64,000 nucleotides of DNA, taken from Eubacteriales bacterium. Lineage in GTDB: Bacteria > Bacillota > Clostridia > Oscillospirales > CAG-382. A program made the position numbers and the translations under genes. Under the pieces are notes generated by a model. It worked only from the letters and a program-made list of their open reading frames with translations, was not told where the DNA came from and searched no databases. Positions 2,521 to 60,147 of this stretch are shown here, in pieces. The first letter of the stretch is position 1, and every line of letters begins with the position of its first letter. Location of the stretch: assembly GCA_045540015.1 (NCBI GenBank), contig JAZQGP010000004.1, positions 30,880 to 94,879 on the forward strand. Reading direction: 5' to 3'.

Positions 2521-2539
2521 TTCAACTTTCAACTTTCAA

Positions 2540-3946
2540 TTATTTAATTGCTATCATGCTCTTGTCGGCAAATTTTCCCATTTCAATATTTGCATCTTCA
2601 AACTGGGTAATTTTTTCACCGTTGAGAGTATAATTTTCGATTACAACGTTGGAAATTTCTCCGACACCGTTATATCTTTCAATCCACCATCTCGGTTTAT
2701 AGCCGTTCTGTGTAACAACAGAAATGTTACGGAATGTAACACTGTCAATTTCTCCTGTGTGGTCGTCCTTTGAATACATTGTACGAACAGTTGTAATAGC
2801 AGCTATCGGAGGATAGTGGTTTTCATTGTCATCTTCATATTTCTGTTCTTTTTCAGTCTGAATCATGGATCTTTCATATCTTTCATCATATTCAAGTCTG
2901 ATATCCTCAAAAAGAACATTTGAAATTTTTGCTCTGTCACCGTGCTGAAGGTCAAGTCCCTGATGCATTACTCTTATGCAGTCGATATTCTTAATAGTAA
3001 TTCCGGTCATTTCGTCTGCACTTGTCTCTGCACCTATTTCAACGTTCTTACCCCAGTCACACCAGGTTACGCAATTTTCTACATAAATATTTCTTACATA
3101 CTTTTCCGAGTTCCATGCAAGACCTTTTATTACAATACAGTCGTCAAAGTTTCTGAGAAAACTGTTTCTGAGAACGCAGTTTGTGGAGTTTGTAAAGTCG
3201 CAGCCGTCGGAATTATATCTCCACATTCCTATAAGCTTTATGTTATCCGCAACGCAGTTGTCGCAGTCTGCAAAGTGAATTGTCCACTGCGGAGCATCTC
3301 TGACTATAACTCCTTCTACAAAAACGTTCTTACAGCTTTTGAACATAAGAGGAGTTCCGTTTCCTCTTTCGGTGTTTGAACTGTCAATAATTCCGTAGCC
3401 GACTATTTTTATATTCTCCGCACCTTCTGCTCCAAAAGAGCCATACACCACAGCACCTTCGTCCACATAAACGGTTGTATTGCTTTCCAGAACCAACTTT
3501 TCTTCAAGGTAAGTAACGCCTTCTCCAAAATAAATGACATTTTGATTTTCGGAATCAACATTAAATTCCTTTACGGGATTCACAAAAATATGAAGAACTT
3601 TATGTCTTGAACCGTATTCAAGAACATACTGTCCTGCACCGGGAAGAGTAAATTCTACTTTTCCGTCAATTACATTGGTCTTTATATTTTTTGAAAGCGG
3701 ACGTACAACAACATTTTCCGTAGGATATTCGCTCTTTACAGACATTTTTACTTCACTGTCTGCACCGAATGTAACAAAAGAAGTAAGCTCCGTCTGGTCA
3801 AGGGGTCTCTGATATCCCGGCCACACCTGATTTATAGGATGTGCAGAAACTCTTGCCTCGTGGCACTTTATGTTTTGTCCATCGGCGTATACTGAAAATT
3901 CCTTTGATTCTGTTTCACTTTCGGGAAAAATATAGTTTTTAATCAT
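2540..3946 (-). CDS. right-handed beta-helix glycoside hydrolase, GH28-like (polygalacturonase-type), no signal peptide
   Basis: 'NSDGCDF' and 'FDDCIVIKG' resemble the GH28 NTDG.D / DDC.A.K motifs. Repetitive beta-helix-like sequence. Confidence 0.6.
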   Translation of the reverse strand: MIKNYIFPESETESKEFSVYADGQNIKCHEARVSAHPINQVWPGYQRPLDQTELTSFVTFGADSEVKMSVKSEYPTENVVVRPLSKNIKTNVIDGKVEFTLPGAGQYVLEYGSRHKVLHIFVNPVKEFNVDSENQNVIYFGEGVTYLEEKLVLESNTTVYVDEGAVVYGSFGAEGAENIKIVGYGIIDSSNTERGNGTPLMFKSCKNVFVEGVIVRDAPQWTIHFADCDNCVADNIKLIGMWRYNSDGCDFTNSTNCVLRNSFLRNFDDCIVIKGLAWNSEKYVRNIYVENCVTWCDWGKNVEIGAETSADEMTGITIKNIDCIRVMHQGLDLQHGDRAKISNVLFEDIRLEYDERYERSMIQTEKEQKYEDDNENHYPPIAAITTVRTMYSKDDHTGEIDSVTFRNISVVTQNGYKPRWWIERYNGVGEISNVVIENYTLNGEKITQFEDANIEMGKFADKSMIAIK

Positions 3947-3963
3947 TGTTTATTCCTCTCTTT

Positions 3964-6261: not shown

Positions 6262-6697
6262 TTAGGTGGGGTTAAATGGAAATTTTATCTCTTATCGACC
6301 GAGATATATAAAAATGAAATTTTAGTTTCTTTTTTCGTACTTTCCACCGGAGGAAAGTACTACAAAGTCCGCCCATGGAAACTACGTTTCCCTCGGTCAC
6401 CCTTCCTTGTCGCCGACGCATTTCTATCTTACTTTTTTCAAAAAGTTTATCTCTCATCTTCAACCTATTTGTCGTACAATCCGGCTTCTATAGCTTACGG
6501 CGATTATTTGTAAGATTACAAAAATGCAACAATGGAGCAATCTCGTTTTCAGAATGCACTCAAATATGTACTTTCGTGAACTTGATGTTGTTTAAATTAT
6601 ATTTCAATTCAATAGGAAGTATCGTGAAATCGAAGTTGTTTAGACTTTGATTTCACCGTTCAAAAGTTTTTTGCTTACTTTTTTTCAAAAAAGTAAG
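6262..6697. repeat. mosaic intergenic repeat, copy A (modules m1, m3, half-H, H, S)
   Basis: Hand alignment to copies B, C and D. Fills the gap between dnaN and the topoisomerase gene. Confidence 0.8.
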
Positions 6698-6702
6698 TGA
6701 AA

Positions 6703-7815
6703 TTATCTAGATCTTACCGGCATTACAAGCTGCAAATAGAAGCTTTCTTCCTTTTCATCTTCTTCGCGAGCAATAATAACAAGACCTTTTCCGCCGGAAG
6801 CTATACGCATTACAACCTTTTCGTCATCACAGGCACGAAGCGCATCTATGAGATAATTCTGGTTGAAATTTACTTCTATGGGATTTCCTTCCATGTAAAT
6901 AGAAAGAAGGTCATTTATTTTACCCTTGTCGGTTTCACAGCTTATCTTAAGCTGGTCATTGATAAAGTTTAGCTTTGCTGATGCTTTAAGCTTGTCGTTT
7001 ATAAGAGCAACTCTTTCAAGGCTTGAAATAAGAGCATTTTTTTCCACTACTGCACTTACTTCGTATGTTGGGATGTATTTTTTGTACTGCGGAAATTCTC
7101 CTTCAAGAAGTCTTATAAGAATATAGAGATTGTCAACTTGGAAAACAATGTGTTTATTTGCAAGCTCGCATACAACATCATCATCGCTGTCATCAATGAT
7201 TCTTAGCAAATTCTGCTGTGCTTTTCCGGGAATTATAAAGCTTACATTAAGGTCAGACTTGTCCGCTGTACTCTTTTCCGTTCTCACAGAAATCCTGAAA
7301 CCGTCAATTGCACAAACCGTGAGATTTCCGCCGCTTATTTCAAACAGAGAACCTTTGAGAATCGGTTTTGAATCATCTGAGGATACTGCAAACATTGTCT
7401 TTGCAATAATTGCTCTGAGCTGTTTTCTCGATATTGTAAAGTTTGAAAAACCTTTTATGTCGGGAAGTTCAGGATAGCTTTCCGCACTTCTTCCGAGAAT
7501 TTGAAAATCTGCTTCTCCTGCTGTTATTTTTATGATGTAATTATCGTCTGTTTCTATGTTTATTTCGCCTTCGGGAAGACTGTGGATAATAGGAACTATC
7601 TGAAGGTCTGCAATAATTTTTCCTTCCCTTTCGATATTTGCAGGAACTGTAGTTTTAATTCCCTTTTCTATATCGTAGCAATAAAGGATAAGCTCGTTTC
7701 CTTTTGCTTCAATATATATTCCGCTTGCAGCTGATTCTGCAGCTTTGTTTTGTGCAACAACACTTACAGGAGTTATTGCTTTTTCAAATTGGGATTTGTC
7801 TACGGTGAAAATCAT
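6703..7815 (-). CDS. dnaN: DNA polymerase III beta sliding clamp
   Basis: 370 aa, three-domain clamp length. 'LLEGEFPQYKKYIP' and C-terminal 'LVMPVR' are typical of DnaN. A DnaA-box cluster lies directly upstream. Confidence 0.9.
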   Translation of the reverse strand: MIFTVDKSQFEKAITPVSVVAQNKAAESAASGIYIEAKGNELILYCYDIEKGIKTTVPANIEREGKIIADLQIVPIIHSLPEGEINIETDDNYIIKITAGEADFQILGRSAESYPELPDIKGFSNFTISRKQLRAIIAKTMFAVSSDDSKPILKGSLFEISGGNLTVCAIDGFRISVRTEKSTADKSDLNVSFIIPGKAQQNLLRIIDDSDDDVVCELANKHIVFQVDNLYILIRLLEGEFPQYKKYIPTYEVSAVVEKNALISSLERVALINDKLKASAKLNFINDQLKISCETDKGKINDLLSIYMEGNPIEVNFNQNYLIDALRACDDEKVVMRIASGGKGLVIIAREEDEKEESFYLQLVMPVRSR

Positions 7816-9476: not shown

Positions 9477-9910
9477 AATTCTTTACTTTCTGTATTTTTG
9501 CAGGTTTTGCATATACCGTAGAAAACTGTCCGTGTATTGTCGACTTCAAAGCCGTGATGAGAAAGAATGTGTTCTCCGATGCTGTCAAGAACAGGACAGG
9601 AGGCATGAAAAAGCTTTCCGCATTTTGTGCATTTGAGGTGAAAATGATTTTTACAGCCGTGAGAAGAAATAAACTGAAAGCAAGCACCTTTTGTACTGTC
9701 GGTACTGTATTTTCTCACTAATCCATCAGAAACGAGCTTTTCAACATTTCTGTAAATTGTAGCAGTTCCGACGGGATTGTTATCGGCTTTGAGCTGGTCG
9801 GAAATTTCTTCAATTGTAAGATGTCTGTCGGAATTTTTTTTCAGACATGACAGAATAAGCTCACTTTGTTTTGTTCTGTAAATCATACTTTTCTGAAGCA
9901 TATTATCCAT
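9473..9910 (-). CDS. Fur-family metalloregulator (Fur/PerR/Zur)
   Basis: 145 aa winged-helix N-terminus. Two CxxC pairs ('CTKCGK', 'CKTCK') and 'HHGF'. Its stop overlaps the start of the DHHW gene (ATGA). Confidence 0.85.
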   Translation of the reverse strand: MDNMLQKSMIYRTKQSELILSCLKKNSDRHLTIEEISDQLKADNNPVGTATIYRNVEKLVSDGLVRKYSTDSTKGACFQFISSHGCKNHFHLKCTKCGKLFHASCPVLDSIGEHILSHHGFEVDNTRTVFYGICKTCKNTESKEL

Positions 9911-11011: not shown

Positions 11012-11646
11012 TATATTTGGAAAGGTTGAAAGGGAGATTTTGTTGCCTTATCGACCGGAAAATACAAGTTTGAAACTGTAGTTTCATTTTTTCGTACTTT
11101 CCACCGGAGGAAAGTACTACAAAGTCCGCCACTCAAAAAGAAGGGATGGCTCGATTTGGAGTTATACTATCTTCTAAACTTGAAAAACTTCACGTTGTTT
11201 CCCACTTCACACTTCCAAATCTCCGCTTACTTCCTTTCTTTCGCCGTGGTGGCTTAACTACCCTCATGGTAAACATCACAACCTATTTGAACAAAAAACT
11301 GAATATTCTTGTGTTAGATAGATAGTTGATTGTTTATTCTCTAATCAACAAAACGGCACTCGAGAAAGAGCTCGCGTCGCGAAGCCCGTAAAAGCTTCAT
11401 TGATGCACGCAAGGCTCCTAAGGTTAAAGTTTTCAAGGAAGCGAAAGTCCGCGAGCTTAGGAAGAGATAACTAAGAGAACCGTAGGTGCTCTTAGTCGTG
11501 CTCTTTTGTTTCATTTTCTACACGAGTAGAAAATGAAAGCCTCCACGGCAGTGGAAAGCTACAAATTTGGTTTAAGCTCACCTCGGCGTTAGCCAAAAAT
11601 ATATAAACGAAAAAGTGAAATTGAAGTTGTTTAGACTTCAATTTCA
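11012..11646. repeat. mosaic intergenic repeat, copy B (m1, m2, m4, H)
   Basis: m1 and its 24-nt hairpin are identical to copy A. m2 is about 85% identical to copy C (inverted). m4 aligns to copy D. Confidence 0.8.
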
Positions 11647-11666
11647 CAAAGGGAAAGTTTTTCTAA

Positions 11667-36813: not shown

Positions 36814-37228
36814 GCTTCTTGAAAGAAGCTTAGCACTTACTTTCTTGAAAGAAAGTAAGCAAAGAACTTTTGAACGGTGAAATTGATGTTTAAACAACAT
36901 CAATTTCACAACTCACCTTATTGTTATTTCAATTGAAACTTAAACAACAACAAATTAACTTTTTATATTCTTGTTAGTATTACCGATGAGGGTAGTTAAG
37001 CCACCACGGCGAAAGAAGGGAAGTCAGCGGAGATTTGGAAGGGTGAAATTGGAGATAATGTGAAGCTTTTCAGGTTTAGAAAATAGCATAACTCCAAATC
37101 GAGCCATCCCTTCTTTTTGAGTGGCGCCTTTGGGTACTTTTCAGCGTTGAAAAGTACAAAGAAACAAGCAACAGCTTCAAATTTATCAATCTCGGTCGGT
37201 AAGGTAATAAAATTTGCTTTTAATCCAC
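36814..37228. repeat. mosaic intergenic repeat, copy C (S, H, degenerate half-H, m2 inverted, m1 inverted)
   Basis: Fills the whole rbgA-polA gap. Confidence 0.8.
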
Positions 37229-43907: not shown

Positions 43908-43992
43908 CAGCGTGACGCTCGACGCTTTTTGAAAAAAGCTTGGCAAAAACATTTCCACGGTGAAATTGATGTTTAAACAACATCAATTTCAC
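43908..43992. repeat. mosaic repeat, short copy E (S-variant + H)
   Basis: H hairpin at 43960-43992 is identical to the one at 36877-36909. S-variant gctttttgaaaaaagc at 43924-43939. Confidence 0.75.
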
Positions 43993-44141
43993 AAAAGTGC
44001 ATATTTAAGCAAATCTAAAAACGGGAATGTTTAAATCTTGTTTTCAGTAAGAAACACACGCAGTCCGCAATTTCACATTTCGCCTTAGCATTATTTAATT
44101 TCAAATATCAACATAATCATTTCCCGAAAGGACAGAAAATA

Positions 44142-49411: not shown

Positions 49412-50119
49412 GTGTTCAAGGCAATATTTTTTGATGTTGACAACACCTTGCTTGATTTTAATAAGGGTGCAGACAAGGCAATGGAAAAGGTTTTTGGCGA
49501 CCTTGGAATTCCCTTTTATCCCGATATGACGAACACCTTTCATGAGGTTAACGACGGACTCTGGAAACGTCTTGAAAAGAAAGAAATCACTCTCGAATAT
49601 CTTCACGAAATACGGTGGGAGCTTGTGCTTGAAAGATTGGGAATTTCAGGCTTTGACGGAAAAGCTGTTGAGCAGGAATTTCTTGCTGCACTGCGGGTTT
49701 GCGCCGTCAAAATTGATGGCGCCGAAGAGCTTCTCTCGTCTCTTTACGGAAAATACAAGCTGTACGTTACAAGCAATGCACCTCATTATCAGCAGGTTGC
49801 AAGACTTACAAACACAGGTCTTTTAAAATATCTTGACGACATTTTCACTTCCGAGCTTATCGGTATTGCAAAGCCCGAAAAAGGCTTCTTTGACGGCTGC
49901 TTTGAGAGGGTGCCTGAGCTTAAAAAAGAGGATGTTCTGCTTGTAGGAGATTCTATCAGTGCAGACATAAAGGGCGGTGCAGCGTACGGACTCAAAACCT
50001 GCTGGTACTGTCCCGACAAGGAAAAGGCAAAAACAAACACCCTTGCCGATTATGTAATAAACAACCTATGCGAACTTACTTTCTTGAAAGAAAGTAAGCA
50101 AAGAACTTTTCCTTTGTGA
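49412..50119 (+). CDS. HAD-superfamily hydrolase (YjjG-like subfamily IA)
   Basis: Motif I 'FFDVDNTL', motif III/IV 'VGDSISADIKGG'. GTG at 49412 is my preferred start (the ORF track uses 49394). The last about 16 codons and the stop lie inside a repeat element. Confidence 0.8.
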   Translation: MFKAIFFDVDNTLLDFNKGADKAMEKVFGDLGIPFYPDMTNTFHEVNDGLWKRLEKKEITLEYLHEIRWELVLERLGISGFDGKAVEQEFLAALRVCAVKIDGAEELLSSLYGKYKLYVTSNAPHYQQVARLTNTGLLKYLDDIFTSELIGIAKPEKGFFDGCFERVPELKKEDVLLVGDSISADIKGGAAYGLKTCWYCPDKEKAKTNTLADYVINNLCELTFLKESKQRTFPL

Positions 50120-50545
50120 AATTGAAGTTTAAACAACTTCAATTTCACGTAATTTTCCCAACAAATTTAAACCAAATTTGCAACAACTTCAATTTCACAA
50201 CTTGACATACTACAATTAAATTGTAAATTTGGAACAACATCAATTTCACAAAACTCTCTAACCAATCGAGCCTTGATTTATACCTTTAAATTAAGAATAG
50301 CTCCAATGAAGCGGCTTTGCAATCTTACAAGTTATCGCCGTAAGCTATAAAAGCCGAGAGAACAAGACAAAACAAGGTAGAAGTAATTCATATTCTTTAG
50401 AATACCATAAAAAAGATAGGCGTCGGCGATAAGGGAGAGATACTTAAGAGAACCGTAGGTTCTTTTAAGCGTGCTCTTTCGGTTACCTTTCTGCACGAGC
50501 AGAAAGAGTAACGCCTCCACGGCGAGTGGGAAGCTGCAAATTCTA
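50075..50545. repeat. mosaic intergenic repeat, copy D (S, H, two half-H units, m3 inverted, m4)
   Basis: Begins inside the 3' end of the HAD gene and ends about 70 nt before the activase gene. Confidence 0.8.
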
Positions 50546-50613
50546 TCTATAATTACCTGCCGCCAGGCACGATATGAAAGCAACCATCAAAAAATAATCA
50601 AAGGAATCTTTAC

Positions 50614-51402
50614 ATGACAAACAAACGGCTCGTTAAGGGCAAAATTTTCGACATACAAAAATTCTCAACCCATGACGGGCCGGGAATCAGAACGATTGTG
50701 TTCCTTAAGGGCTGTGTTCTTCGCTGCCGCTGGTGCTGCAATCCCGAATCGCAGAGTTTTGAAACTGAAACGCTGATTCGTGGCGGCAAGGAAGTTGTAA
50801 TGGGACAGGAAATCACGGCAGGAGAGGTTATCGACACTGTAATGCGCGACCTTCCTTACTACCGCAGAAGCGGAGGCGGTCTTACCCTTTCAGGCGGAGA
50901 AGCTATGTGCCAGCCTGACTTTGCGGAGGCTTTGCTTGTCGAGGCGCATAATCACGGAATAAACACAGCAATTGAGACAACCGCGTGCGTTCCGTATGAA
51001 ATTGTACAAAGACTTGTACCGCATATAGATTATGTGCTTATGGACATAAAGCATATGAACAGCGCAAAGCACGAGCAGTTTACAACTAAGAAGAACGAGC
51101 TTATTCTGGATAACGCAAAGAAGATTGCAAAGATGGCAAACAGCCTTACAATACGCGTTCCGGTAATACCGACATTCAACGACACCGAGCAGGAAATAAG
51201 TGATATTGCAAATTTTGCAGCATCGCTTGGAACCGTAAAGCAAATACATCTTTTGCCTTACCATAGACTCGGCTATGATAAATACATAGGGCTTGGACGA
51301 AATTACGGAATGGGAGATATTCCCGTACCTACACCGGAGCATATGCACTCGCTTGTGGAAGCGGCACAAAAAAGCGGTCTTACCGTTGTGATAGGAGGCT
51401 AG
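50614..51402 (+). CDS. glycyl-radical enzyme activating protein (PflA-type radical SAM activase)
   Basis: 'FSTHDGPGIRTIVFLKGCVLRCRWCCNPES' (CX3CX2C), 262 aa. No glycyl radical enzyme is present anywhere in the window. Confidence 0.88.
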   Translation: MTNKRLVKGKIFDIQKFSTHDGPGIRTIVFLKGCVLRCRWCCNPESQSFETETLIRGGKEVVMGQEITAGEVIDTVMRDLPYYRRSGGGLTLSGGEAMCQPDFAEALLVEAHNHGINTAIETTACVPYEIVQRLVPHIDYVLMDIKHMNSAKHEQFTTKKNELILDNAKKIAKMANSLTIRVPVIPTFNDTEQEISDIANFAASLGTVKQIHLLPYHRLGYDKYIGLGRNYGMGDIPVPTPEHMHSLVEAAQKSGLTVVIGG

Positions 51403-51408
51403 AGCAAT

Positions 51409-51780
51409 ATGGATAATATATATGAAGGAAAACAGAGAATAATCCAGGAGCTTGTTCCCGGTAAACAGATTACCCTTGCTCATATAATAGCAAATCCCGA
51501 TGAAATACTTTATAAAAAGCTCGGTCTCGACCCGTCGATTGACTATTCACAAAACAAATGTGCAATAGGTCTTGTTACTATGTCACCTGCTGAATACGCA
51601 ATAATCGGTGCTGACCTTGCAATAAAAAAATCGGCAGCAAAGCTCGGCTTTGTAGACAGATTTTCCGGAACGCTTATTGTGACGGGGACTGTTTCCGAGG
51701 TTGAAGCATCGCTTAATGCTGTGACAGAATACGCAGAGAAAAAGCTTTCATTTAAAGTTTGCCCTGTTACGAGAACGTAA
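51409..51780 (+). CDS. BMC shell protein, circularly permuted PduU/EutS type
   Basis: 'RIIQELVPGKQITLAHIIANP' and 'GFVDRFSGTLIVTG' align with E. coli EutS as I remember it. Confidence 0.88.
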   Translation: MDNIYEGKQRIIQELVPGKQITLAHIIANPDEILYKKLGLDPSIDYSQNKCAIGLVTMSPAEYAIIGADLAIKKSAAKLGFVDRFSGTLIVTGTVSEVEASLNAVTEYAEKKLSFKVCPVTRT

Positions 51781-51783
51781 AAT

Positions 51784-52224
51784 ATGCGCAAGTTAATACT
51801 GATCGGTCGCAGCGAAAGCGGAAAAAGTACGCTCATCCAAGCGCTTCGCCACGAGGAAATACATTATCACAAAACACAGTATATTGACTACAGCGAAAGC
51901 ATAATCGATACTCCCGGCGAATATGTCGAGGACAGACAGTTCGGCGGTGCGCTTGCAGTGTATTCTTGCGAAGCGGATGTAATAGGGCTTCTGCTTTCGG
52001 CAACCGAGCCGTATTCCCTGTTTCCGCCTTGTCTTGTGGGTATGGCAACAAGACCGGTTATCGGTATAGTTACAAAATGCGACCACAAGGATGCGGTTCC
52101 GACACGTGCCGAAGGTTGGCTCAGACTTGCGGGATGCAAACGCATTTTCTTTACTTCGAGCTATAATAACGAAGGTATACAGGAAATTCTTGATTATCTT
52201 AGTTTGGATGAAGAGCCTGATTAA
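51784..52224 (+). CDS. EutP/PduV-family small GTPase
   Basis: P-loop 'GRSESGKSTL', 'IDTPGEY', 'TKCD'. 146 aa. Confidence 0.85.
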   Translation: MRKLILIGRSESGKSTLIQALRHEEIHYHKTQYIDYSESIIDTPGEYVEDRQFGGALAVYSCEADVIGLLLSATEPYSLFPPCLVGMATRPVIGIVTKCDHKDAVPTRAEGWLRLAGCKRIFFTSSYNNEGIQEILDYLSLDEEPD

Positions 52225-52322
52225 ATGTGACCAAAATATGACCAAAAACACGTTTGGTGAAAATAAAACCACATAAAACAACAAAATCCACACAAAAAAC
52301 CACATTTTTTGTCCAAAAAAGG

Positions 52323-52351
52323 TTGACATGTATTTGACAAAGTGGTATAAT
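52323..52351 (+). promoter_or_regulatory. consensus sigma-A promoter of the BMC cargo/shell operon
   Basis: TTGACA-N17-TATAAT with a TGn extended -10, about 80 nt upstream of the aldolase ATG. Confidence 0.7.
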
Positions 52352-52430
52352 TTGTGTTGTAGAGGGTTAAAAGCTCTTTAATAAACAAAGAAAACAAAAA
52401 ACAAATCATAAAACCGAAGGAGACTTTAAA

Positions 52431-53240
52431 ATGGCTACAGAGTACGAAATTAAAAAACAAATCTGTGACATCGGCAAGCGTATTTACGACAGAGGCATGG
52501 TAGCTTCAAACGACGGAAACATCTCCGTAAAGCTCAATGACAATGAGTTCCTTTGCACACCTACAGGCGTAAGCAAGGGTTTCATGACTCCCGAGTACAT
52601 ATGCAAGGTTGATGCAAACGGAAATGTTATTCAGGCAAACGACGGCTTCAAGCCTTCCTCCGAAATAAAGATGCATATGCGTGTTTATAAGGAAAGACCT
52701 GACGTAAACAGTGTTGTTCATGCTCACCCCATGTACGCAACAAGCTTTGCTATCGCAGGCATTCCGCTTACAGAGCCAATCATGCCCGAAGCAATCATCG
52801 CTCTCGGATGTGTTCCGATTGCAGAATACGGCACACCTTCAACAGAAGAAATCCCGGATGCAGTAAGCAAGTATCTTCCTTACTTTGATGCTGTTCTTCT
52901 TGAGAACCACGGTGCACTTGCATTCTCCGATTCTCTTCTTAACGCATATCACAAGATGGAATCCGTTGAGTTCTATGCTCAGCTTCTCTATCAGGCAAAG
53001 ATGCTCGGCGGTGCAAAGCCTCTCTCCGAAAGCCAGGTTCAGAGACTTTACGAAATTCGCCGTCAGTTCGGTCTTAAAGGTAAGCACCCTGCAGACCTCT
53101 GCCCCAACAATAAGGCAGGCAAGCCCAGCTGTCACTCTTGCGGCGGCAACTGCACATGCGGCGGACACGGCCATTCTGCAGAAGACGAAATCATTGCGCA
53201 GATTACAAGAGACGTTCTTGCTCAGCTTCAGCAAAAGTAA
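52431..53240 (+). CDS. class II aldolase/adducin-family protein (FucA/RhaD-like) with C-terminal Cys/His linker and encapsulation-peptide-like helix
   Basis: 'NDGNISVK', 'SSEIKMH' and 'VVHAHP' metal-binding His motifs. The C-terminal 45 aa are an extra tail. Confidence 0.85.
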   Translation: MATEYEIKKQICDIGKRIYDRGMVASNDGNISVKLNDNEFLCTPTGVSKGFMTPEYICKVDANGNVIQANDGFKPSSEIKMHMRVYKERPDVNSVVHAHPMYATSFAIAGIPLTEPIMPEAIIALGCVPIAEYGTPSTEEIPDAVSKYLPYFDAVLLENHGALAFSDSLLNAYHKMESVEFYAQLLYQAKMLGGAKPLSESQVQRLYEIRRQFGLKGKHPADLCPNNKAGKPSCHSCGGNCTCGGHGHSAEDEIIAQITRDVLAQLQQK

Positions 53241-53275
53241 TTCGTTCTTATATTAAAGAAAGGAGCTGACACGCT

Positions 53276-53785
53276 TTGAGTCTTGAACTTACAAAAATCG
53301 TTGACGGCGTTGTCAGAGCCGTTCTCGAGCAAAATGAAAATAAAACCGAAACAGTTTCAAACAATCTTTCCAAAATGACACTTTCGGCTGCCAGAGATTT
53401 GATAAGAGCGGTTGAGACAAAGGCAAGAGATATGGGTGTAAAAGCCGTTGTTGCCGTGTCTGACGCATCGGGAAATCCGATAGCAGTTGAATGTATGGAC
53501 AATGCTTTCCTTGCAAGCTACGATATAGCCGTAAACAAAGCGTATACCGTAACGGCGCTTAAGATGCCGACCTCAGCTCTTGCAGAACTTGCAAAGCCGG
53601 GCGGTAGTCTTTACGGAATACAGCATACAAACGGTGGAAAAATCGTGATTTTCGGCGGAGGCGAGCCTCTTGTGAATAACAAGGGAGAGATAGTCGGAGG
53701 TCTTGGAGTAAGCGGCGGAACTGCCGAACAGGACACGAACCTCGGTCAGTTCGGAAAGATATATTTTGAAACCGGAAAACAGTGA
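53276..53785 (+). CDS. GlcG/DUF336 (PduO C-terminal domain-like) haem-binding-fold protein with N-terminal amphipathic extension
   Basis: 'AVSDASGNPIA...DIAVNKAYTV...GGLGVSGGTAEQD'. TTG start after AAAGGAG. Confidence 0.8.
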   Translation: MSLELTKIVDGVVRAVLEQNENKTETVSNNLSKMTLSAARDLIRAVETKARDMGVKAVVAVSDASGNPIAVECMDNAFLASYDIAVNKAYTVTALKMPTSALAELAKPGGSLYGIQHTNGGKIVIFGGGEPLVNNKGEIVGGLGVSGGTAEQDTNLGQFGKIYFETGKQ

Positions 53786-53809
53786 CATAAGCAGAAACGG
53801 AGAGATATC

Positions 53810-55030
53810 ATGGATATAAAAGCAAATGATATTGAAGCTATTGTAAGACAGGTGCTTGCAAATATGGCAGACGGCAAAACAAATACCGCGCCTGCCGCGA
53901 AGAGCAGTGCTCCTGCAGGTGGCGTTCCAAAGAGCGCACGCGTTGCAATGCTTACAAAGCTTGAGCATTTTGATTTGAATGAGTATCCCATTCCCGCGCT
54001 TGCAGACGACGATATCCTTGTTAAGGTAGAAGGCTGCGGTGTTTGCGGAACAGATGCTCATGAGTTTAAGCGTGACCCCTTCGGACTTATCCCCGTTGCT
54101 CTCGGACATGAGGGAACAGGTGAAATTGTTGCGATGGGTAAAAACGTTAAGAAGGACAGTGCGGGAAAAGATCTTCACATCGGTGACAAGGTTGTTACAT
54201 GTATGATTTTTTCAGACAATCCCGACATTACAATGTTCGACCTTAACAAGCAGAACGTAGGCGGTGCAGACGTTTACGGACTTCTCCCCGATAAGGAGGA
54301 TAACCATTTTAACGGATGGTTTGCTGATTACATAGTTGTTAAAGGCGGCTCTACCATATTTAACGTAAGCGACCTTGACCTTGATTCAAGAATACTTATT
54401 GAGCCTTGTGCGGTTCTTATCCATGCGGTTGAACGTGCAAAGACAACAGGCATTTTAAGATTCAATTCGAGAGTTGTTGTTCAGGGCTGCGGACCTATCG
54501 GTCTTATCTGTATTGCAGTTCTTCGCACAATGGGTATTGAAAACATTGTAGCGGTTGACGGAAATGATATGCGTCTTGACTTTGCAAAGCAGATGGGTGC
54601 TACAAACACCGTAAACTTCACACAGCACAAGGGCGTTGAAGCTCTTGCAGATGCGGTTAAGGCAGCGTTTGGCGGTCATCTTGCAGACTTTGGCTTCCAG
54701 TGCACAGGCTCACCTGTAGCACATGCAAACATCTACAAGTTCATCCGTAGCGGCGGCGGACTTTGCGAGCTCGGCTTCTTCATTAACGGAGGCGATGCAA
54801 GCATAAATCCCCACTTTGATATCTGTGCAAAGGAAATTACAACCGTGGGCTCTTGGGTATATACACTCAGAGATTACGCTACAACGTTTGATTTCTTAAA
54901 GAGAGCAAAGGCTATAGGACTTCCGCTGGAAAAGCTGATTACTCACAAGTATCCGCTTGAGCAGATAAACGAAGCACTTGAAATGAACCTGTCCATGCAG
55001 GGGCTTAAGATTGCTATCGTCAACAAATAA
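53810..55030 (+). CDS. zinc-dependent MDR-family dehydrogenase with N-terminal encapsulation-peptide-like helix plus Ala/Pro linker
   Basis: 'GCGVCGTDAHE', 'GHEGTGEIV' and Rossmann 'VQGCGPIGL'. About 40 extra N-terminal residues. Confidence 0.85.
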   Translation: MDIKANDIEAIVRQVLANMADGKTNTAPAAKSSAPAGGVPKSARVAMLTKLEHFDLNEYPIPALADDDILVKVEGCGVCGTDAHEFKRDPFGLIPVALGHEGTGEIVAMGKNVKKDSAGKDLHIGDKVVTCMIFSDNPDITMFDLNKQNVGGADVYGLLPDKEDNHFNGWFADYIVVKGGSTIFNVSDLDLDSRILIEPCAVLIHAVERAKTTGILRFNSRVVVQGCGPIGLICIAVLRTMGIENIVAVDGNDMRLDFAKQMGATNTVNFTQHKGVEALADAVKAAFGGHLADFGFQCTGSPVAHANIYKFIRSGGGLCELGFFINGGDASINPHFDICAKEITTVGSWVYTLRDYATTFDFLKRAKAIGLPLEKLITHKYPLEQINEALEMNLSMQGLKIAIVNK

Positions 55031-55087
55031 GTTATCCCTAAGCAAAAAATAAAAAATATATAAATTTTTCTAAGGAGGAAAAGAAAA

Positions 55088-55366
55088 ATGGCACTTGAAG
55101 CACTTGGAATGATTGAAACCAGAGGACTCACAGCAGCAGTTGAAGCTGCAGATGCAATGGTAAAGGCAGCAGAGGTTACTCTCATCGGAACTGAAAAGAT
55201 CGGTAGCGGACTCGTATCCGTTATGGTTCGCGGCGACGTTGGAGCAGTAAAGGCAGCAGTTGAGGCAGGTACCGCAGCAGCTTCCAGACTCGGCGAAATT
55301 ATCGCAACGCACGTTATCCCCAGACCTCACAACGACGTTGAAAAAATTCTTCCTTCTCTTAACTGA
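55088..55366 (+). CDS. BMC-H hexamer shell protein (PduA/EutM type)
   Basis: '[24 protein letters not shown]', 92 aa, strong AAGGAGG RBS. Confidence 0.93.
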
Positions 55367-55386
55367 TTTAAAGGGAGGAAAACATC

Positions 55387-55845
55387 ATGGCTGAAAAGAA
55401 GCCTACACCCCGCAAAAGAGCAACTGCTCCCAAAGCGGAAAACATAGCCGCATCGAATGTAATTGCTTCCCCTGCTACGGAGGTTGTCGAAAAGGTAATC
55501 ACCAAGGCTCCGGCGGCAAAGAAAGAAACAGCGGTAAAGAAAACAACAGAACAGGAGAAAAAAGTTATGGTACAGCAGGCATTAGGTATGGTTGAAACCA
55601 GAGGCTTGGTTGCAGCTATTGAAGCAGCAGATGCTATGCTCAAGGCAGCAAACGTTGAACTCGTTGGAACCGAAAAGATCGGTAGCGGACTCGTATCCGT
55701 TATGGTTCGCGGCGACGTAGGAGCAGTAAAGGCTGCAGTTGAAGCAGGTCTTGCAGCAGCTCAGAAGCTCGGCGAAATCATCGCAACTCACGTTATCCCC
55801 AGACCTCACACCGACGTTGAGAAGATTCTTCCTTCTCTTAAGTAA
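55387..55845 (+). CDS. BMC-H shell protein with 60-aa basic Ala/Lys/Pro-rich N-terminal extension (alternative internal start at 55567)
   Basis: Canonical BMC domain from residue about 63. Both the ATG at 55387 (AGGGAGG) and the in-frame ATG at 55567 (GGAGA) have good RBSs. Confidence 0.85.
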
Positions 55846-55859
55846 TAAGGTGAACTTTT

Positions 55860-55892
55860 ACAGCGGCATCTGCAAAAAACGGATGCCGCTGT
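55860..55892 (+). other. stable GC-rich hairpin after the BMC-H pair (no U-tail)
   Basis: acagcggcatc-tgcaaaaaac-ggatgccgctgt, in a 170-nt gap before the BMC-P gene. Confidence 0.5.
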
Positions 55893-56015
55893 GGAGCAGA
55901 ATAGTGTACTTTTGAGCACTGTTTGCGCCGTCCTTTATTTGAGTATGAATATGTCAAATTGTATTTATACTCAAGTGAAAGACACCACTAAAAATGTAAG
56001 GCAGGTGTACAGAAA

Positions 56016-56288
56016 ATGATTATAGGAAAAGTAACAGGCAGCATCGTATCCACACGCAAGAACGAAAACCTTGTTGGACACAAGCTTATGATAGTAGAGC
56101 CGATTTCGTCTATGTGCGGCGAAAATGGCGCGAAGAGCTTTGTTGCCATTGACAATGTAGGCGCAGGTATAGGAGAAATTGTACTTGTTGCTACGGGAAG
56201 TGCCGCAAGAATCGGTTGCGGTTTTGAAAATTCGCCCATAGATGCGGCAATTGTAGGTATCGTTGACGAAGGAAGCGGATTGGAGTGA
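56016..56288 (+). CDS. BMC-P pentamer vertex protein (EutN/PduN/CcmL family)
   Basis: 'MIIGKVTGSIVSTRKNENLVGHKLMIVEP...DNVGAG.GE.VLV', 90 aa. Confidence 0.9.
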   Translation: MIIGKVTGSIVSTRKNENLVGHKLMIVEPISSMCGENGAKSFVAIDNVGAGIGEIVLVATGSAARIGCGFENSPIDAAIVGIVDEGSGLE

Positions 56289-56301
56289 TGGGATTTTGGA
56301 A

Positions 56302-57624
56302 ATGAATAAACTTTCTCAGTTTCTTCGTGACGGCGGTGTCGTCGGAGCAGGCGGTGCAGGATTTCCCTCCTATGCAAAGCTTAACAAGGATGCTGACACT
56401 ATTATACTCAACTGCGCTGAATGTGAACCTCTTTTGAAGCTTCACAGACAGGTTATGGAGTTTCATGCAGAGGAAATAACCTTTGCTCTTGATGAAATTG
56501 CAAAGGCAGTCGAAGCACAGCGCGTTATTATTGCAATAAAACCACATTATGAAAAAGCCATTGCGGCAATTAATAAATGTTTGCCCAAATATAAAAATAT
56601 GACAATCGGTCTTTTGCCGGAGATTTATCCTGCGGGAGACGAGGTTATAACAATATATGAAACTACAGGCAGAGTAGTTCCTCCGGGAAGTCTGCCGATT
56701 TCTGTCGGAGTTACGGTTTTCAACGTTGAAACTGCGCTTAATGCGGCAAGAATGATAAATGAAAACAAGCCGGTTACATATAAATACGTCACTGTTGCGG
56801 GTGAAGTCAAAAAGCCGTGCACGTTAAAAGTTCCGCTTGGTATGACTTACGGAGAGCTTGTAGAGCTTGCAGGCGGAGAAACGTGCGAAGATGCAGTGCT
56901 TATCGCAGGCGGACCTATGACGGGTATGATTGCATATAAGTCGGATGTTGTTACTAAGACTTCAAATGCAATTCTCGTAATGCCGCCTCATCAATATATT
57001 GTTGAAAAGAGAAAAACTCCCGTAGGCATTGACCTTAAGCGTGCAATGAGTGTGTGCTGTCAGTGTATGATGTGTACCGATTTGTGTTCGAGAAATCTTC
57101 TCGGTCATCCCATTGAGCCTCACGCCTTTATGCGTGCCGCTTCTTATGCAAAGACAGAAGACACGCAGACCTTCCTTAATACAATGTTCTGTTCTTCCTG
57201 CGGACTTTGCGAGCTGTATTCCTGCGGACAGGATTTGAATCCCAGAACGCTTATAGGTATCACAAAAGGCGCTCTCAGAAAGAACGGCATTGCAATCCCG
57301 AAAGACATCGAGCAAAGCGGTGTTCACAAGCAGAGAGCTTACAGAACAGTACCCATGTCACGCCTTATTTCAAGACTCGGTCTTCGCAAATATGACGTGG
57401 AGGCTCCTTTGGATGAAAAGCTTGTCGATGCAAGGTTTGTAAAAATCAACCTTTCTCAGAGCATAGGCGCACCGAGTGTAGCGTGTGTCAGTGTTGGAGA
57501 TAAGGTTAATGTAGGCGACGTTGTGGGAAATGCTCCCGAAAAGCTCGGGGTTCCGGTTCATGCGTCGATAAACGGAGTTGTAACCGAGGTTACTGACAAG
57601 TACGTTGCCATAATGGCACAGTGA
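56302..57624 (+). CDS. PduS-like Fe-S flavoprotein (RnfC/NuoF-type SLBB + 2x[4Fe-4S])
   Basis: 'GVVGAGGAGFPSYAKL', with cluster motifs 'CCQCMMCTDLC' and 'CSSCGLCELYSC'. ATG at 56302 preferred over the TTG at 56263, which overlaps the BMC-P gene. Confidence 0.82.
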   Translation: MNKLSQFLRDGGVVGAGGAGFPSYAKLNKDADTIILNCAECEPLLKLHRQVMEFHAEEITFALDEIAKAVEAQRVIIAIKPHYEKAIAAINKCLPKYKNMTIGLLPEIYPAGDEVITIYETTGRVVPPGSLPISVGVTVFNVETALNAARMINENKPVTYKYVTVAGEVKKPCTLKVPLGMTYGELVELAGGETCEDAVLIAGGPMTGMIAYKSDVVTKTSNAILVMPPHQYIVEKRKTPVGIDLKRAMSVCCQCMMCTDLCSRNLLGHPIEPHAFMRAASYAKTEDTQTFLNTMFCSSCGLCELYSCGQDLNPRTLIGITKGALRKNGIAIPKDIEQSGVHKQRAYRTVPMSRLISRLGLRKYDVEAPLDEKLVDARFVKINLSQSIGAPSVACVSVGDKVNVGDVVGNAPEKLGVPVHASINGVVTEVTDKYVAIMAQ

Positions 57625-57635
57625 GGTGTACATAA

Positions 57636-58184
57636 ATGAGTAAAGCAATAGGAATGGTAGAATACAGAACCGTATCCTCCGGCATTACGGCGGCGGACAC
57701 TATGGTTAAGACAAGTGCCGTTGAGGTGCTTGAAGCACATGTAGTTTGTCCCGGCAAATATATTGTACTTGTTGCGGGAGAACTCAGTGCGGTTAGAGCA
57801 TCGGTTGATGCGGCGACAAGAAAAAACCCCGATATGCTTACAGACTCCTTTGTTCTGGGTAACCCCCATGAGGACATTTTCAGAGCAATCTACGGAGGCT
57901 CGCCGCTTGAAAACGCAAAGGCTCTCGGAATACTTGAAACTTTTTCCGTGCCGTCGATAATCGTTGCTGCCGACAGTGCTGCAAAAGCGGCTGAGGTTGA
58001 GCTTATCGAAATAAGATGTGCAAGAGGTATGAGCGGAAAATCATATATGCTTATTACCGGTACGGTAGCTTCCGTAACTGCGGCAATTGAGCATGCAAAG
58101 CAGAAAATTTCCGAGGAAGGAACTTTCCTTGATTCTTCGGTTATTCCCAATCCCGACCCGTCTATCTGGGACAGCATTCTTTAA
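57636..58184 (+). CDS. BMC-T tandem-domain shell protein (PduT type)
   Basis: Two BMC repeats in 182 aa. Cys at residue 38 ('HVVCPGKY'), the position I recall for the PduT pore [4Fe-4S] ligand. Confidence 0.85.
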   Translation: MSKAIGMVEYRTVSSGITAADTMVKTSAVEVLEAHVVCPGKYIVLVAGELSAVRASVDAATRKNPDMLTDSFVLGNPHEDIFRAIYGGSPLENAKALGILETFSVPSIIVAADSAAKAAEVELIEIRCARGMSGKSYMLITGTVASVTAAIEHAKQKISEEGTFLDSSVIPNPDPSIWDSIL

Positions 58185-58228
58185 AATAAGCAAATCCCCC
58201 GACAAAATACAACTTCGGTAGGTGAATT

Positions 58229-58987
58229 ATGCTTCCTATAGAAAGAAAAAACGAAATACTTGCAAAGCTTGTGGCAAGCGGCAAGGTAATTGTGAGCGAT
58301 CTGGCCGCGGAATACGAGGTAACTGAAGAAACCATACGCCGCGACCTTGACAAGCTTGAAAAGGAAGGTCTTGCAAAAAAGACCTACGGCGGTGCCGTTA
58401 AAAACGAAAATCTCAACGCAGAGCTTCCTTATAACGTAAGAAAGCAGACTAATGTTGAGGGAAAAATGTATATTGCCGAAAAGATAGGTACTCTTATCAA
58501 GGACGGTGACTACCTGCTTCTTGATGCGAGCACAACCGCGCTTTTTACGGTTAAAAACATTTCTTCGCTTCACAACATAACGCTTATAACAAATTCCATT
58601 GAGGTGCTTCTTGAAGTGCCTCACAATAACGACTGGCGTGTTATATGTACAGGCGGTGAGTTCGTGCAGAATGGGCTTGCTTTTGCAGGACGCCAGGTTG
58701 AAACTATTATTGATGAATATAATGTAGACCTCGCGGTCATCTCCTGCAAGGGACTTGATATGGCAAAGGGAATCACCGACACCCGTGACTACAACGGGCA
58801 GACCAAGAAAGCGTTTATGCGTTCGGCAAAAAAGGTTCTGCTTGCGGTTGACCACACGAAATTTGATAAGACGAGTTTTGTGCGTTTTGCGGAAATCTCC
58901 GACATTGACACGGTGGTTACGGATAAGGAGCCGAGTGAAGAGTGGAAGAACCTCTTTATAAGCAATAATGTAGACCTTTATTTTTAG
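58229..58987 (+). CDS. DeoR/GlpR-family transcriptional regulator (FucR-like class)
   Basis: N-terminal HTH 'VSDLAAEYEVTEETIRRDLDKLE' plus a sugar-phosphate-binding DeoR C-domain. Confidence 0.88.
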   Translation: MLPIERKNEILAKLVASGKVIVSDLAAEYEVTEETIRRDLDKLEKEGLAKKTYGGAVKNENLNAELPYNVRKQTNVEGKMYIAEKIGTLIKDGDYLLLDASTTALFTVKNISSLHNITLITNSIEVLLEVPHNNDWRVICTGGEFVQNGLAFAGRQVETIIDEYNVDLAVISCKGLDMAKGITDTRDYNGQTKKAFMRSAKKVLLAVDHTKFDKTSFVRFAEISDIDTVVTDKEPSEEWKNLFISNNVDLYF

Positions 58988-59007
58988 AGTTTTTTTCGGA
59001 GAATAAA

Positions 59008-60147
59008 ATGCAAAGATTTAAGCTTAAAACTGATATATATTTCGGCGATAACGCCCTTGATGTTTTAAAGACCGTCAAGGCAAAGACCGCGGTCGTTTTT
59101 ACGGATGCGTTTCTCGTCGATAACGGAACGGCAGACCGCATAAAGGGACTTCTTTCTCAGTGTGAGAAGGTTCTTATTTATTCCAAGGTAAAGCCTGACC
59201 CGCCTGTAGAGCTTGTTGCAGACGCACTTGCGTTCCTTATGGAATGCGATGCCGATGTTATAGTTGCTGTGGGAGGCGGTTCGCCTATAGATGCCGCAAA
59301 GAGTACGATTCATGTGGCTCGCAGTACAATGAATAAGAAAATACGCCTTATTGCAATTCCCACTACGAGCGGAACGGGTTCTGAGGTTACTCAGTTTGCG
59401 GTTATTACAGACACCCAGAAGGATGTGAAAATTCCGCTTGTAGATGAAGAGCTTCTTCCTGAAATGGCGATTCTTTCAAGTGAGCTTACAGCAAGCGTTC
59501 CGCCGTCTGTTACCGCAGACACAGGTTTTGACGTGCTGACACACGCTCTTGAAGCTTATATTTCAACAAATGCAAATGAGTTTTCGGATGCTCTTGCAGA
59601 AAAGTCGGTTGAGCTTTTTGCTGAGTATATGGTTCCGGCGTACAAGGACGGACACGACCTTGTTGCACGAGAGAAAATGCATACAGCTTCGTGTCTTGCA
59701 GGCATTGCCTTCAATGAAGCGGGACTCGGAGTAAACCACAGTATTGCACATGCACTGGGTGCGAATTTCCATATACCTCACGGCAGAGCAAATGCACTTT
59801 TACTACCTCATGTAATACGCTTTAACACCGAGCTTGACATTAAATTCTGTGTTAAAAATGCTTGCCCCACAGCAGATAAGCTTGAAGGGCTTGCAAGACG
59901 CCTCGGTTATCCTGCGAACAGCCCCGATATCGGTGTAAGAAACATGATACACAAGATAAAGGAATTTCAGAACTGGCTGAGCATTCCTACAACTCTCGGC
60001 GAAACGGGTGTAAAGCGAGCTGATTACGAAGCGGTAAAAGAACATATAATTGAAAGCGCTCTTTCCGATAAGTGTACAGCAACAAACCCCAGAAAAATAG
60101 ACAGAGCTGCGGTAGAAGAAATTCTGTCTAAGATAGCCAAATTCTAA
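59008..60147 (+). CDS. iron-containing (group III) alcohol dehydrogenase (FucO/PduQ/EutG-like)
   Basis: 'GGGSPIDAAK' and 'HALEAY...HSIAHALG...HG' metal ligands. 379 aa, no terminal extension. Confidence 0.88.
   Translation: MQRFKLKTDIYFGDNALDVLKTVKAKTAVVFTDAFLVDNGTADRIKGLLSQCEKVLIYSKVKPDPPVELVADALAFLMECDADVIVAVGGGSPIDAAKSTIHVARSTMNKKIRLIAIPTTSGTGSEVTQFAVITDTQKDVKIPLVDEELLPEMAILSSELTASVPPSVTADTGFDVLTHALEAYISTNANEFSDALAEKSVELFAEYMVPAYKDGHDLVAREKMHTASCLAGIAFNEAGLGVNHSIAHALGANFHIPHGRANALLLPHVIRFNTELDIKFCVKNACPTADKLEGLARRLGYPANSPDIGVRNMIHKIKEFQNWLSIPTTLGETGVKRADYEAVKEHIIESALSDKCTATNPRKIDRAAVEEILSKIAKF

Follow-up and report, generated by a model that had tools for sequence, protein, structure and literature searches.

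A GRM5-related microcompartment locus lacking aldehyde dehydrogenase and PduL genes, probably split from its glycyl radical enzyme, in uncultured gut Clostridia

How would a bacterial microcompartment balance its lumenal cofactors if no aldehyde dehydrogenase (AldDH) is encoded with its shell? By the design rule of catabolic microcompartments, an AldDH and an alcohol dehydrogenase cycle NAD(H) inside the shell, and PduL recycles CoA. The question is raised by a locus at positions 50614-60147 of a 64,000-nt stretch of a Eubacteriales genome (GCA_045540015.1, contig JAZQGP010000004.1; hereafter the window), which encodes several types of shell protein, a FucA-type aldolase, a glycyl-radical activating enzyme (activase) and two alcohol dehydrogenases.

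The initial annotation of this sequence found no glycyl radical enzyme (GRE), AldDH or PduL in the locus or elsewhere in the window, and our tblastn searches bore this out. It had also treated the three absences as one. All three genes are indeed missing, but the absences are of two kinds: that of AldDH and PduL is lineage-wide, and that of the GRE belongs to this contig only. Taken together, the data make it reasonably probable that this is a GRM5-family locus of uncultured gut Clostridia, likely reductive and propanol-forming, that was split from its GRE by a rearrangement or an assembly join.

Absence of AldDH and PduL in a sub-lineage

Eleven reference proteins of related loci (five AldDH, two acetate kinase and four PduL) gave no credible tblastn match within the window, and Pfam scans of 20 of the larger open reading frames (ORFs; 309-892 aa) upstream of 44 kb returned only housekeeping and glycoside hydrolase (GH) genes. 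Likewise, tblastn detected no AldDH, acetate kinase or PduL in 16 related AldDH-less loci, including their ±10 kb flanks. The same operon, without AldDH or PduL within ±10 kb, occurs in at least 14 related species.

A broader survey could be anchored on the zinc-dependent alcohol dehydrogenase of the operon (Zn-MDR), whose close homologues number in the thousands; a Zn-MDR that bears an encapsulation peptide is encoded by at least 582 species-representative genomes. The best 80 genomes by Zn-MDR match are all from uncultured Clostridia of ruminant, horse, deer and human guts. We annotated 80 species loci by BLAST against close-relative references and by clustering of unassigned ORFs, and scored the 57 in which the 3′ part is retained. 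A CoA-acylating AldDH of ~480 aa with an N-terminal encapsulation peptide is present in 46 of the 80 loci and acetate kinase in 13. Among the scorable loci, 44 encode both AldDH and PduL, one ends after AldDH and 12 encode neither; for nine of these 12, at least 1.5 kb of extra flank is available. Where both are present, AldDH and PduL occupy one of three positions, one of them matching the gene order of Clostridium phytofermentans.

The loci without AldDH and PduL share a further feature: all 12 encode an iron-dependent alcohol dehydrogenase (Fe-ADH), compared with 7 of the 45 AldDH-bearing loci. In a neighbour-joining tree of Zn-MDR, the complete loci in the window's group are all AldDH-less save one (L026), in which Fe-ADH is followed by acetate kinase, AldDH and PduL. 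Given this grouping, the Fe-ADH association and the negative ±10 kb searches, absence of AldDH and PduL appears to be a conserved trait of the sub-lineage, tied to gain or retention of Fe-ADH. Gene content thus marks the AldDH/PduL-less form as a real, recurrent variant of GRM5; other sub-lineages, by the same annotation, carry an AldDH-PduL module in the operon, often with an acetate kinase gene ahead of it. The earlier judgement that this is not a standard metabolosome layout therefore holds for the lineage rather than for the window alone.

The closest relatives show what a complete operon of this kind looks like. They comprise two JGI metagenome contigs, L006 and L007, whose Zn-MDR is 97% and 94% identical to that of the window; L093 (GCA_052842715.1), with 92.8% DNA identity across PduV to Fe-ADH; L005 (GCA_054271695.1; Zn-MDR 88% identical); and L001-L004, a single species represented by dozens of contigs (Zn-MDR 84% identical). 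Their 14 genes run in the order GRE, activase, PduU, PduV, aldolase, DUF336, Zn-MDR, BMC-H, BMC-H, BMC-P, PduS, PduT, DeoR, Fe-ADH. This order, which includes a GRE but neither AldDH nor PduL, was found in five directly examined relatives and, by a scan of the collection, in eight more species genomes. A GRE is found immediately 5′ of the activase in those five relatives, as it is in 44 of the 57 scorable loci. In the four closest relatives, the GRE adjoining the 5′ side of the activase is of the propanediol dehydratase type, 842-853 aa long, and nearest to the diol dehydratase of Roseburia inulinivorans (PDB 5i2a; 1225 bits, full length). Two other loci, L039 and L042, have a second, divergent GRE-activase pair adjoining the microcompartment operon.

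Separation of the GRE from the operon

No GRE was found in the window by tblastn with four GREs taken from relatives (best E = 1.6). The same negative result rules out a GRE pseudogene remnant in the 50.1-50.6 kb interval ahead of the activase. Colinear DNA homology with L007 and L093 begins at window position 50073, which aligns with the final base of the GRE stop codon in those two loci, so that the break falls exactly at the end of the gene.

The sequence at this junction is a copy of a dispersed two-hairpin repeat. The element forms the first ~75 nt of the spacer, CTTTCTTGAAAGAAAG, then GTGAAATTGAAGTTTAAACAACTTCAATTTCAC; its consensus is CTTTCTTGAAAGAAAG, then GTGAAATTGA(A/T)GTTTAAACAAC(T/A)TCAATTTCAC, and changes among copies keep the stems. 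Window copies lie at 50074-50515, 6378-6698 (minus strand), 11447-11662, 36835-36909 and 43922-44013, and relatives have them at 2947-3381 and 6315-6707 (L007) and at 3993-4094, 9517-9644 and 11247-11355 (L093). One copy stands on either side of the GRE in L007, and copies flank a GH38-GRE pair in L093. L093 and an unrelated window site have a 73-nt core in common at 100% identity; among the window's own copies, the longest shared stretch is 75 nt, at 91% identity. The element is located at synteny break points. Rfam and tRNA scans of the window gave no match, and the repeat is therefore not a curated RNA family. At the junction, the last ~15 codons of a YjjG-type HAD nucleotidase (LTFLKESKQRTFPL, 50073-50119) are encoded by the repeat, and the family model ends at about residue 228 of 241.

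Upstream of the GRE, both L007 and L093 encode histidyl-tRNA synthetase and a response regulator, and L093 also aspartyl-tRNA synthetase and GH38. None of these is in the window, which indicates that the left flank was exchanged, not merely trimmed. A scan of JGI metagenome contigs with two exact anchors gave 0 matches to the junction at which the HAD gene meets the activase spacer. Elsewhere, a DXP reductoisomerase-GH28-ParC block lies ~45 kb upstream of the operon in the window (1412-5458) and immediately downstream of it in L006 (17177-21218). As far as these alignments show, gene order has been extensively reshuffled in this genus, and absence of the GRE is specific to this contig, coincident with the synteny break at the repeat. 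The separation may have been caused either by a real rearrangement or by an assembly join at the repeat.

Where, then, is the GRE? Among the proteins listed for the genus-level clade, those of NCBI origin place activase, aldolase, DUF336, BMC-P, PduS, PduT and DeoR on contigs of only three lengths, 95,851 bp (the window's), 136,993 bp (that of L093) and 247,149 bp. The clade's GREs of NCBI origin are on contigs of 136,993, 247,149 and 67,632 bp, the last with no other recorded operon gene. The GRE on this 67,632-bp contig, P0407, is full length and intact (842 aa). Compared with the GREs of L093, the 247-kb genome and L007, it is 96.4%, 93.1% and 92.7% identical, respectively; for the window's activase, the identities to the same three relatives are 96.6%, 93.5% and 93.1%. 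P0407 also resembles the window's own proteins in having no contig-index entry, and NCBI proteins of other genomes do have such entries. These matching divergences suggest that this genome very probably carries an intact GRE on another contig.

The alternatives of the initial annotation can be read in this light. Its suggestion of a satellite half of a split locus was right in spirit, given the break at the repeat and P0407, except that the shell kit is complete and the locus is no satellite as that term is defined. Its other suggestion, an organelle without GRE or AldDH that makes and reduces lactaldehyde, fares less evenly. The GRE-less part is unlikely, because the absence is peculiar to this contig, the break lies at a repeat and an intact GRE is very probably encoded elsewhere; the AldDH-less part may hold for the lineage.

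Operon organization, cargo and relation to known types

All 13 co-oriented ORFs are intact, with the coordinates and families assigned initially and with family matches above Pfam curated cut-offs (Table 1), and the shell-gene list stands as first drawn up: a permuted BMC, two BMC-H, a EutN-type pentamer and PduT with Cys38. The start of PduS is at 56302, since an exact look-up matches the 440-aa product; the TTG at 56263 is too early. Housekeeping genes flank the operon, with TrkA, TrkH and the YjjG-type HAD nucleotidase upstream and rpsL, rpsG and fusA downstream. The second BMC-H has a ~60-aa N-terminal extension rich in Lys, Ala and Pro (55387-55572), probably disordered, whose length and composition are kept in AldDH-less relatives.

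Identity to the L007 and L006 orthologues is 89-100% for 12 of the 13 proteins, with few lineage-unique changes. For the activase, identity to orthologues is 93-97% (the highest with L093), and its six lineage-unique substitutions are conservative (11 in L007, 8 in L006). With no excess of substitutions relative to orthologues, decay of the activase was ruled out. It scores 292.8 bits against TIGR02494 (cut-off 174) in two match stretches that skip the insert.

Table 1. Features of the microcompartment operon and its upstream junction (window coordinates)
Feature	Position	Strand	Evidence or remark
Junction region	50073-50613	+	Dispersed two-hairpin repeat copy (core 50074-50148), then relatives' GRE-to-activase spacer
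Glycyl-radical activating enzyme, short type without ferredoxin insert, intact	50614-51402	+	Pfam Radical_SAM, Fer4_12
PduU/EutS-type permuted BMC-H shell protein	51409-51780	+	Pfam BMC at residues 52-119; position kept in relatives
PduV/EutP small GTPase	51784-52224	+	PF10662, E = 7e-50
Candidate operator, four direct repeats AAA(A/T)C(C/A)ACA	52265-52304	+	
Perfect extended sigma-70 promoter, TTGACA-17-TATAAT with TG extension	52323-52351	+	Promoter scan, 12/12 matches
Class II aldolase, FucA type	52431-53240	+	PF00596, E = 6e-51
DUF336/HbpS-like protein	53276-53785	+	PF03928 match from residue 34
Zn-MDR alcohol dehydrogenase	53810-55030	+	Pfam ADH_N, ADH_zinc_N
BMC-H shell hexamer, PduA/EutM type	55088-55366	+	PF00936, E = 3e-30; 99-100% identity to L007, L006
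Second BMC-H, N-terminally extended	55387-55845	+	PF00936 at residues 65-140
BMC-P pentamer, EutN/PduN	56016-56288	+	PF03319, E = 3e-31
PduS-type Fe-S flavoprotein, 440 aa	56302-57624	+	Complex1_51K, SLBB, Fer4_17, RnfC_N domains
PduT-type BMC-T	57636-58184	+	Two BMC domains; pore cysteine Cys38, codon TGT
DeoR-family regulator	58229-58987	+	HTH_DeoR, DeoRC domains
Fe-dependent alcohol dehydrogenase, no terminal extension	59008-60147	+	Fe-ADH, ADH_Fe_C domains

Three enzymes of the operon, the aldolase, the DUF336 protein and Zn-MDR, have terminal extensions missing from non-microcompartment homologues. The first ~45 residues of Zn-MDR comprise an amphipathic helix, NDIEAIVRQVLANM (53810-53869), and an Ala/Pro linker, and most alignments with solved structures begin only at residues 36-68. 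The published microcompartment catalogue includes an encapsulation-peptide hidden Markov model for the GRM5 Zn-ADH, HMM00107alcdh_1_grm5, built from 197 sequences. An N-terminal helix, KIVDGVVRAVLEQ (53276-53341), precedes the Pfam match of the DUF336 protein. Solved L-fuculose-phosphate aldolases, the nearest structures, align to residues 5-216 of the aldolase only, and its 53-residue tail contains a Cys-rich linker (53100-53165) and a helix, EIIAQITRDVLAQL (53181-53237). All three extensions are kept in relatives, the aldolase tail in 72 related loci, and this conservation makes the three enzymes likely lumenal cargo. With intact genes and conserved encapsulation peptides as indicators, functional shell assembly and cargo encapsulation are predicted.

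Two of these proteins show additional features. Between the aldolase fold and its helix, residues 224-245 (53100-53165) contain the motif CPNxKxGKxSCHxCGGxC, with 4-5 Cys, kept in 72 of 72 related aldolases; this part of the tether may bind a metal or an Fe-S cluster. Zn-MDR has a single cysteine in residues ~121-152 (CMIFSDNPDITMFDLNKQNVGG, 54170-54270), which correspond to the structural zinc-binding region of MDR enzymes. The nearest homologues that are free of an encapsulation peptide, P0128 and P0129, show the cysteine-rich CGTCDAC...C at this point. From this comparison, the microcompartment enzyme seems to have lost its structural zinc site. More distant Zn-MDR clusters (P0144 and P0132, 37-41% identity) have no microcompartment linkage.

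The family models are less specific about substrates. The aldolase lies below every NCBIfam equivalog cut-off, its best FucA model giving 126 bits (cut-off 264). For Fe-ADH, the AdhE alcohol dehydrogenase domain is the best match (368 bits), and the lactaldehyde reductase model gives 273 bits (cut-off 523). The likeness to the E. coli FucA/FucR/FucO set drawn initially is accordingly a loose one, of families: the same three, FucA aldolase, DeoR-type regulator FucR and lactaldehyde reductase FucO, are common to both, but the aldolase and Fe-ADH score below the equivalog cut-offs, the latter by far, and Fe-ADH is nearer to AdhE than to FucO. The predicted chemistry is also shared, with fuculose-1-phosphate giving dihydroxyacetone phosphate (DHAP) and lactaldehyde, and lactaldehyde giving 1,2-propanediol. 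In contrast to the cytosolic, shell-less E. coli enzymes, the aldolase and one dehydrogenase of the locus bear encapsulation peptides. Zn-MDR is the probable lumenal lactaldehyde reductase, and Fe-ADH a candidate propionaldehyde (or lactaldehyde) reductase; the AdhE-like score fits a role as propanol dehydrogenase.

A promoter lies within the operon, between pduV and the aldolase gene and 3′ of the direct repeats (Table 1). In seven species the two hexamers are unchanged, as is much of the repeat block, and the spacer around them varies. The repeats are likely the DeoR operator. With its own conserved promoter and repeats, the aldolase-to-Fe-ADH unit appears self-contained, and GRE, activase, PduU and PduV would be a separate upstream unit, which fits the recurrent loss of that unit among relatives. 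Six species loci retain AldDH and PduL but lack GRE and activase, as in the published PVM-like pattern; L016 is without GRE, activase, PduU, AldDH and PduL; and L091 retains an activase, but the 6.8 kb upstream of it contain no GRE.

We compared the locus with published microcompartment types (for GRM5, Axen 2014, Zarzycki 2015, Ferlez 2019 and Sutter 2021). The kinship with the C. phytofermentans-type (GRM5) locus proposed initially is borne out by the activase type, the encapsulation peptides, the relatives' GRE and the gene set. Only GRM5 activases lack the ferredoxin-like insert (PMC6325248), and PduS/PduT, DeoR and DUF336 are GRM5 ancillary genes (PMC4207490); the locus has an insert-less activase of 262 aa and all of these genes. 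Like the GRM5 loci of C. phytofermentans (Cphy_1174-1186) and R. inulinivorans, it also encodes PduU, BMC-H, BMC-P, a FucA-type aldolase with a C-terminal encapsulation peptide and a Zn-ADH with an N-terminal one, and its close relatives have a diol-dehydratase-type GRE at the 5′ end. Unlike them, the operon has no CoA-acylating AldDH or PduL, has two BMC-H genes rather than four, includes PduV and a terminal Fe-ADH, and has no adjacent GRE in the window.

The locus as it stands in the window is thus a relative of GRM5 that falls outside the definitions of GRM, metabolosome, PVM-like and satellite loci. A metabolosome, or a metabolosome with incomplete core (MIC), needs at least a core AldDH, PF00171 (PMC4207490, PMC8217296), which is absent here. 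Satellite loci have an insufficient shell set, only PF00936 or only PF03319 (Axen 2014, PMC4207490), and this one encodes BMC-H, permuted BMC-H, BMC-T and BMC-P. It resembles the PVM-like loci of Firmicutes (Axen 2014, Sutter 2021; 'Pvm' of Ravcheev 2019) in its DeoR regulator, GRM5-related shell and core proteins, lack of a GRE in the locus and use of an aldolase as the sole aldehyde-generating enzyme of the locus. PVM-like loci, however, combine this aldolase signature with GRM5-related AldDH and PduL and presumably disproportionate lactaldehyde, whereas the present locus has neither enzyme and keeps a GRE activase. The ETU locus of Clostridium kluyveri and 'BUF' loci similarly depart from the AldDH/alcohol dehydrogenase/PduL core, with lumenal cofactor recycling a puzzle. 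Unlike the present locus, ETU has AldDH and is without BMC-P, and BUF has unrelated enzymes; here, GRM5 offers a template for the pathway. Earlier work has noted aldolase microcompartments that have no diol dehydratase next to them (Ravcheev 2019). We found no description of a GRM5 form without AldDH and PduL in the literature, and such loci may be filed under GRM5 or GRM5like in the published catalogue, part of which was compared.

Predicted pathway and alternative explanations

In canonical GRM5, an aldolase yields lactaldehyde, which Zn-ADH reduces; the GRE dehydrates propanediol, and AldDH oxidises propionaldehyde (Ferlez 2019). By our own stoichiometry this lumen is balanced, Zn-ADH using one NADH and AldDH returning one. 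For the present lineage we propose a reductive counterpart. The DeoR regulator would probably control the conserved promoter that drives the aldolase-to-Fe-ADH unit, and a shell of PduU, two BMC-H proteins, BMC-P and PduT would pack the aldolase, DUF336 protein and Zn-MDR through their amphipathic terminal helices. Judging from its family, the aldolase would cleave L-fuculose-1-phosphate or L-rhamnulose-1-phosphate to DHAP and L-lactaldehyde, which Zn-MDR would reduce with NADH to 1,2-propanediol. A GRE of the type observed in relatives, if present in this genome as we expect, would be activated by the activase and convert propanediol to propionaldehyde. Without AldDH, propionaldehyde would go to 1-propanol via Fe-ADH or Zn-MDR, making the C3 branch a pure sink of two NADH that could offset oxidation of DHAP to acetate, a balance that would suit a fermenter. 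More speculatively, PduS and PduT may provide electrons for GRE activation by the activase and possibly for lumenal NADH.

Several points weigh against this reading. It has two NADH-consuming steps in the lumen and no NADH-producing one, leaving the lumenal NADH supply unexplained, and PduS and PduT are no special adaptation of the AldDH-less variant, because AldDH-bearing relatives have them too. The top NCBIfam match of the aldolase is 3-oxo-tetronate-4-phosphate decarboxylase. AldDH and PduL could be located elsewhere in the genome, more than 10 kb off or in a second microcompartment locus. As for the GRE, the count of three lengths of operon-bearing contig takes in 15 of the 16 members of the activase cluster, those listed, and P0407 probably belongs to this assembly, on circumstantial grounds. 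A bolder version of the scheme would be an AldDH-free, purely reductive glycyl-radical metabolosome throughout the lineage, taking fuculose or rhamnulose phosphate through lactaldehyde, propanediol and propionaldehyde to propanol, in which cytosolic low-potential electrons pass the [4Fe-4S] pore of PduT to a reverse-running PduS and regenerate lumenal NADH with no oxidative partner enzyme. We consider this version doubtful.

The strongest competitor is a complete GRM5 metabolism of the ordinary kind, its genes distributed among several loci, with encapsulated AldDH and PduL encoded elsewhere, here and in relatives, and propionaldehyde converted to propionate and propanol as in C. phytofermentans. 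Precedents exist, as satellite-locus AldDH is documented for microcompartment types ACI and HO (PMC8217296) and ~20% of microcompartment-bearing genomes have a second locus; L026, too, groups with the AldDH-less loci and yet has the full set of Fe-ADH, acetate kinase, AldDH and PduL. The empty ±10 kb flanks of the 16 related loci argue against it, and so does the strict association with Fe-ADH, which looks like functional replacement rather than relocation; we rate it possible, though on balance unlikely. Somewhat less probable still is that the GRE is missing only through a chimeric assembly join at the hairpin repeat, the real chromosome having it directly 5′ of the activase as in relatives. 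The source NCBI assembly is probably metagenome-derived, as is every relative found, the break coincides with a repeat whose core is shared perfectly between species, and an intact GRE is on a separate contig. However, the window's repeat copies are short for a mis-join at large k, the two sides of the junction are similarly diverged from L006 (83% and 85%), and these genomes are truly rearranged relative to each other.

The two remaining explanations would take the window at face value. A truly GRE-less and AldDH-less organelle, with a shell enclosing only aldolase, DUF336 protein and Zn-MDR, 1,2-propanediol as end product and the activase a recent relic, would have parallels in the GRE-less relatives (the six species with AldDH and PduL, L016 and L091) and draws support from the separate promoter of the aldolase-to-Fe-ADH unit. 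It is rendered improbable by the lack of relaxed selection on the activase, by an intact GRE of matching divergence in the same source set and by retention of the GRE in the four closest relatives. Least credible, to the point of being very improbable, is a decaying remnant whose expression or assembly has ceased. The window does lack three core pathway genes, and the end of the HAD reading frame runs into the junction repeat, but all 13 reading frames are intact, their products closely match those of L007 and L006, and promoter and encapsulation peptides are conserved. A GRM5-family locus with probable reductive metabolism, split from its GRE, remains the reading we favor.

These findings bear on how microcompartments are typed and what they are expected to do. 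A locus split by a repeat may look incomplete in a metagenome-assembled contig, and locus-based typing would misfile it. The gut lineage described here is widespread and retains the radical enzyme, the shell and the encapsulated reductase. If AldDH and PduL are absent genome-wide, the design rule of catabolic microcompartments would have natural exceptions, in which cofactors or electrons cross the shell; otherwise, the core would be encoded far from the shell genes. If the reductive reading is true, these gut Clostridia would turn fucose or rhamnose into propanol or 1,2-propanediol and not propionate, which would bear on predictions of cross-feeding in the gut.

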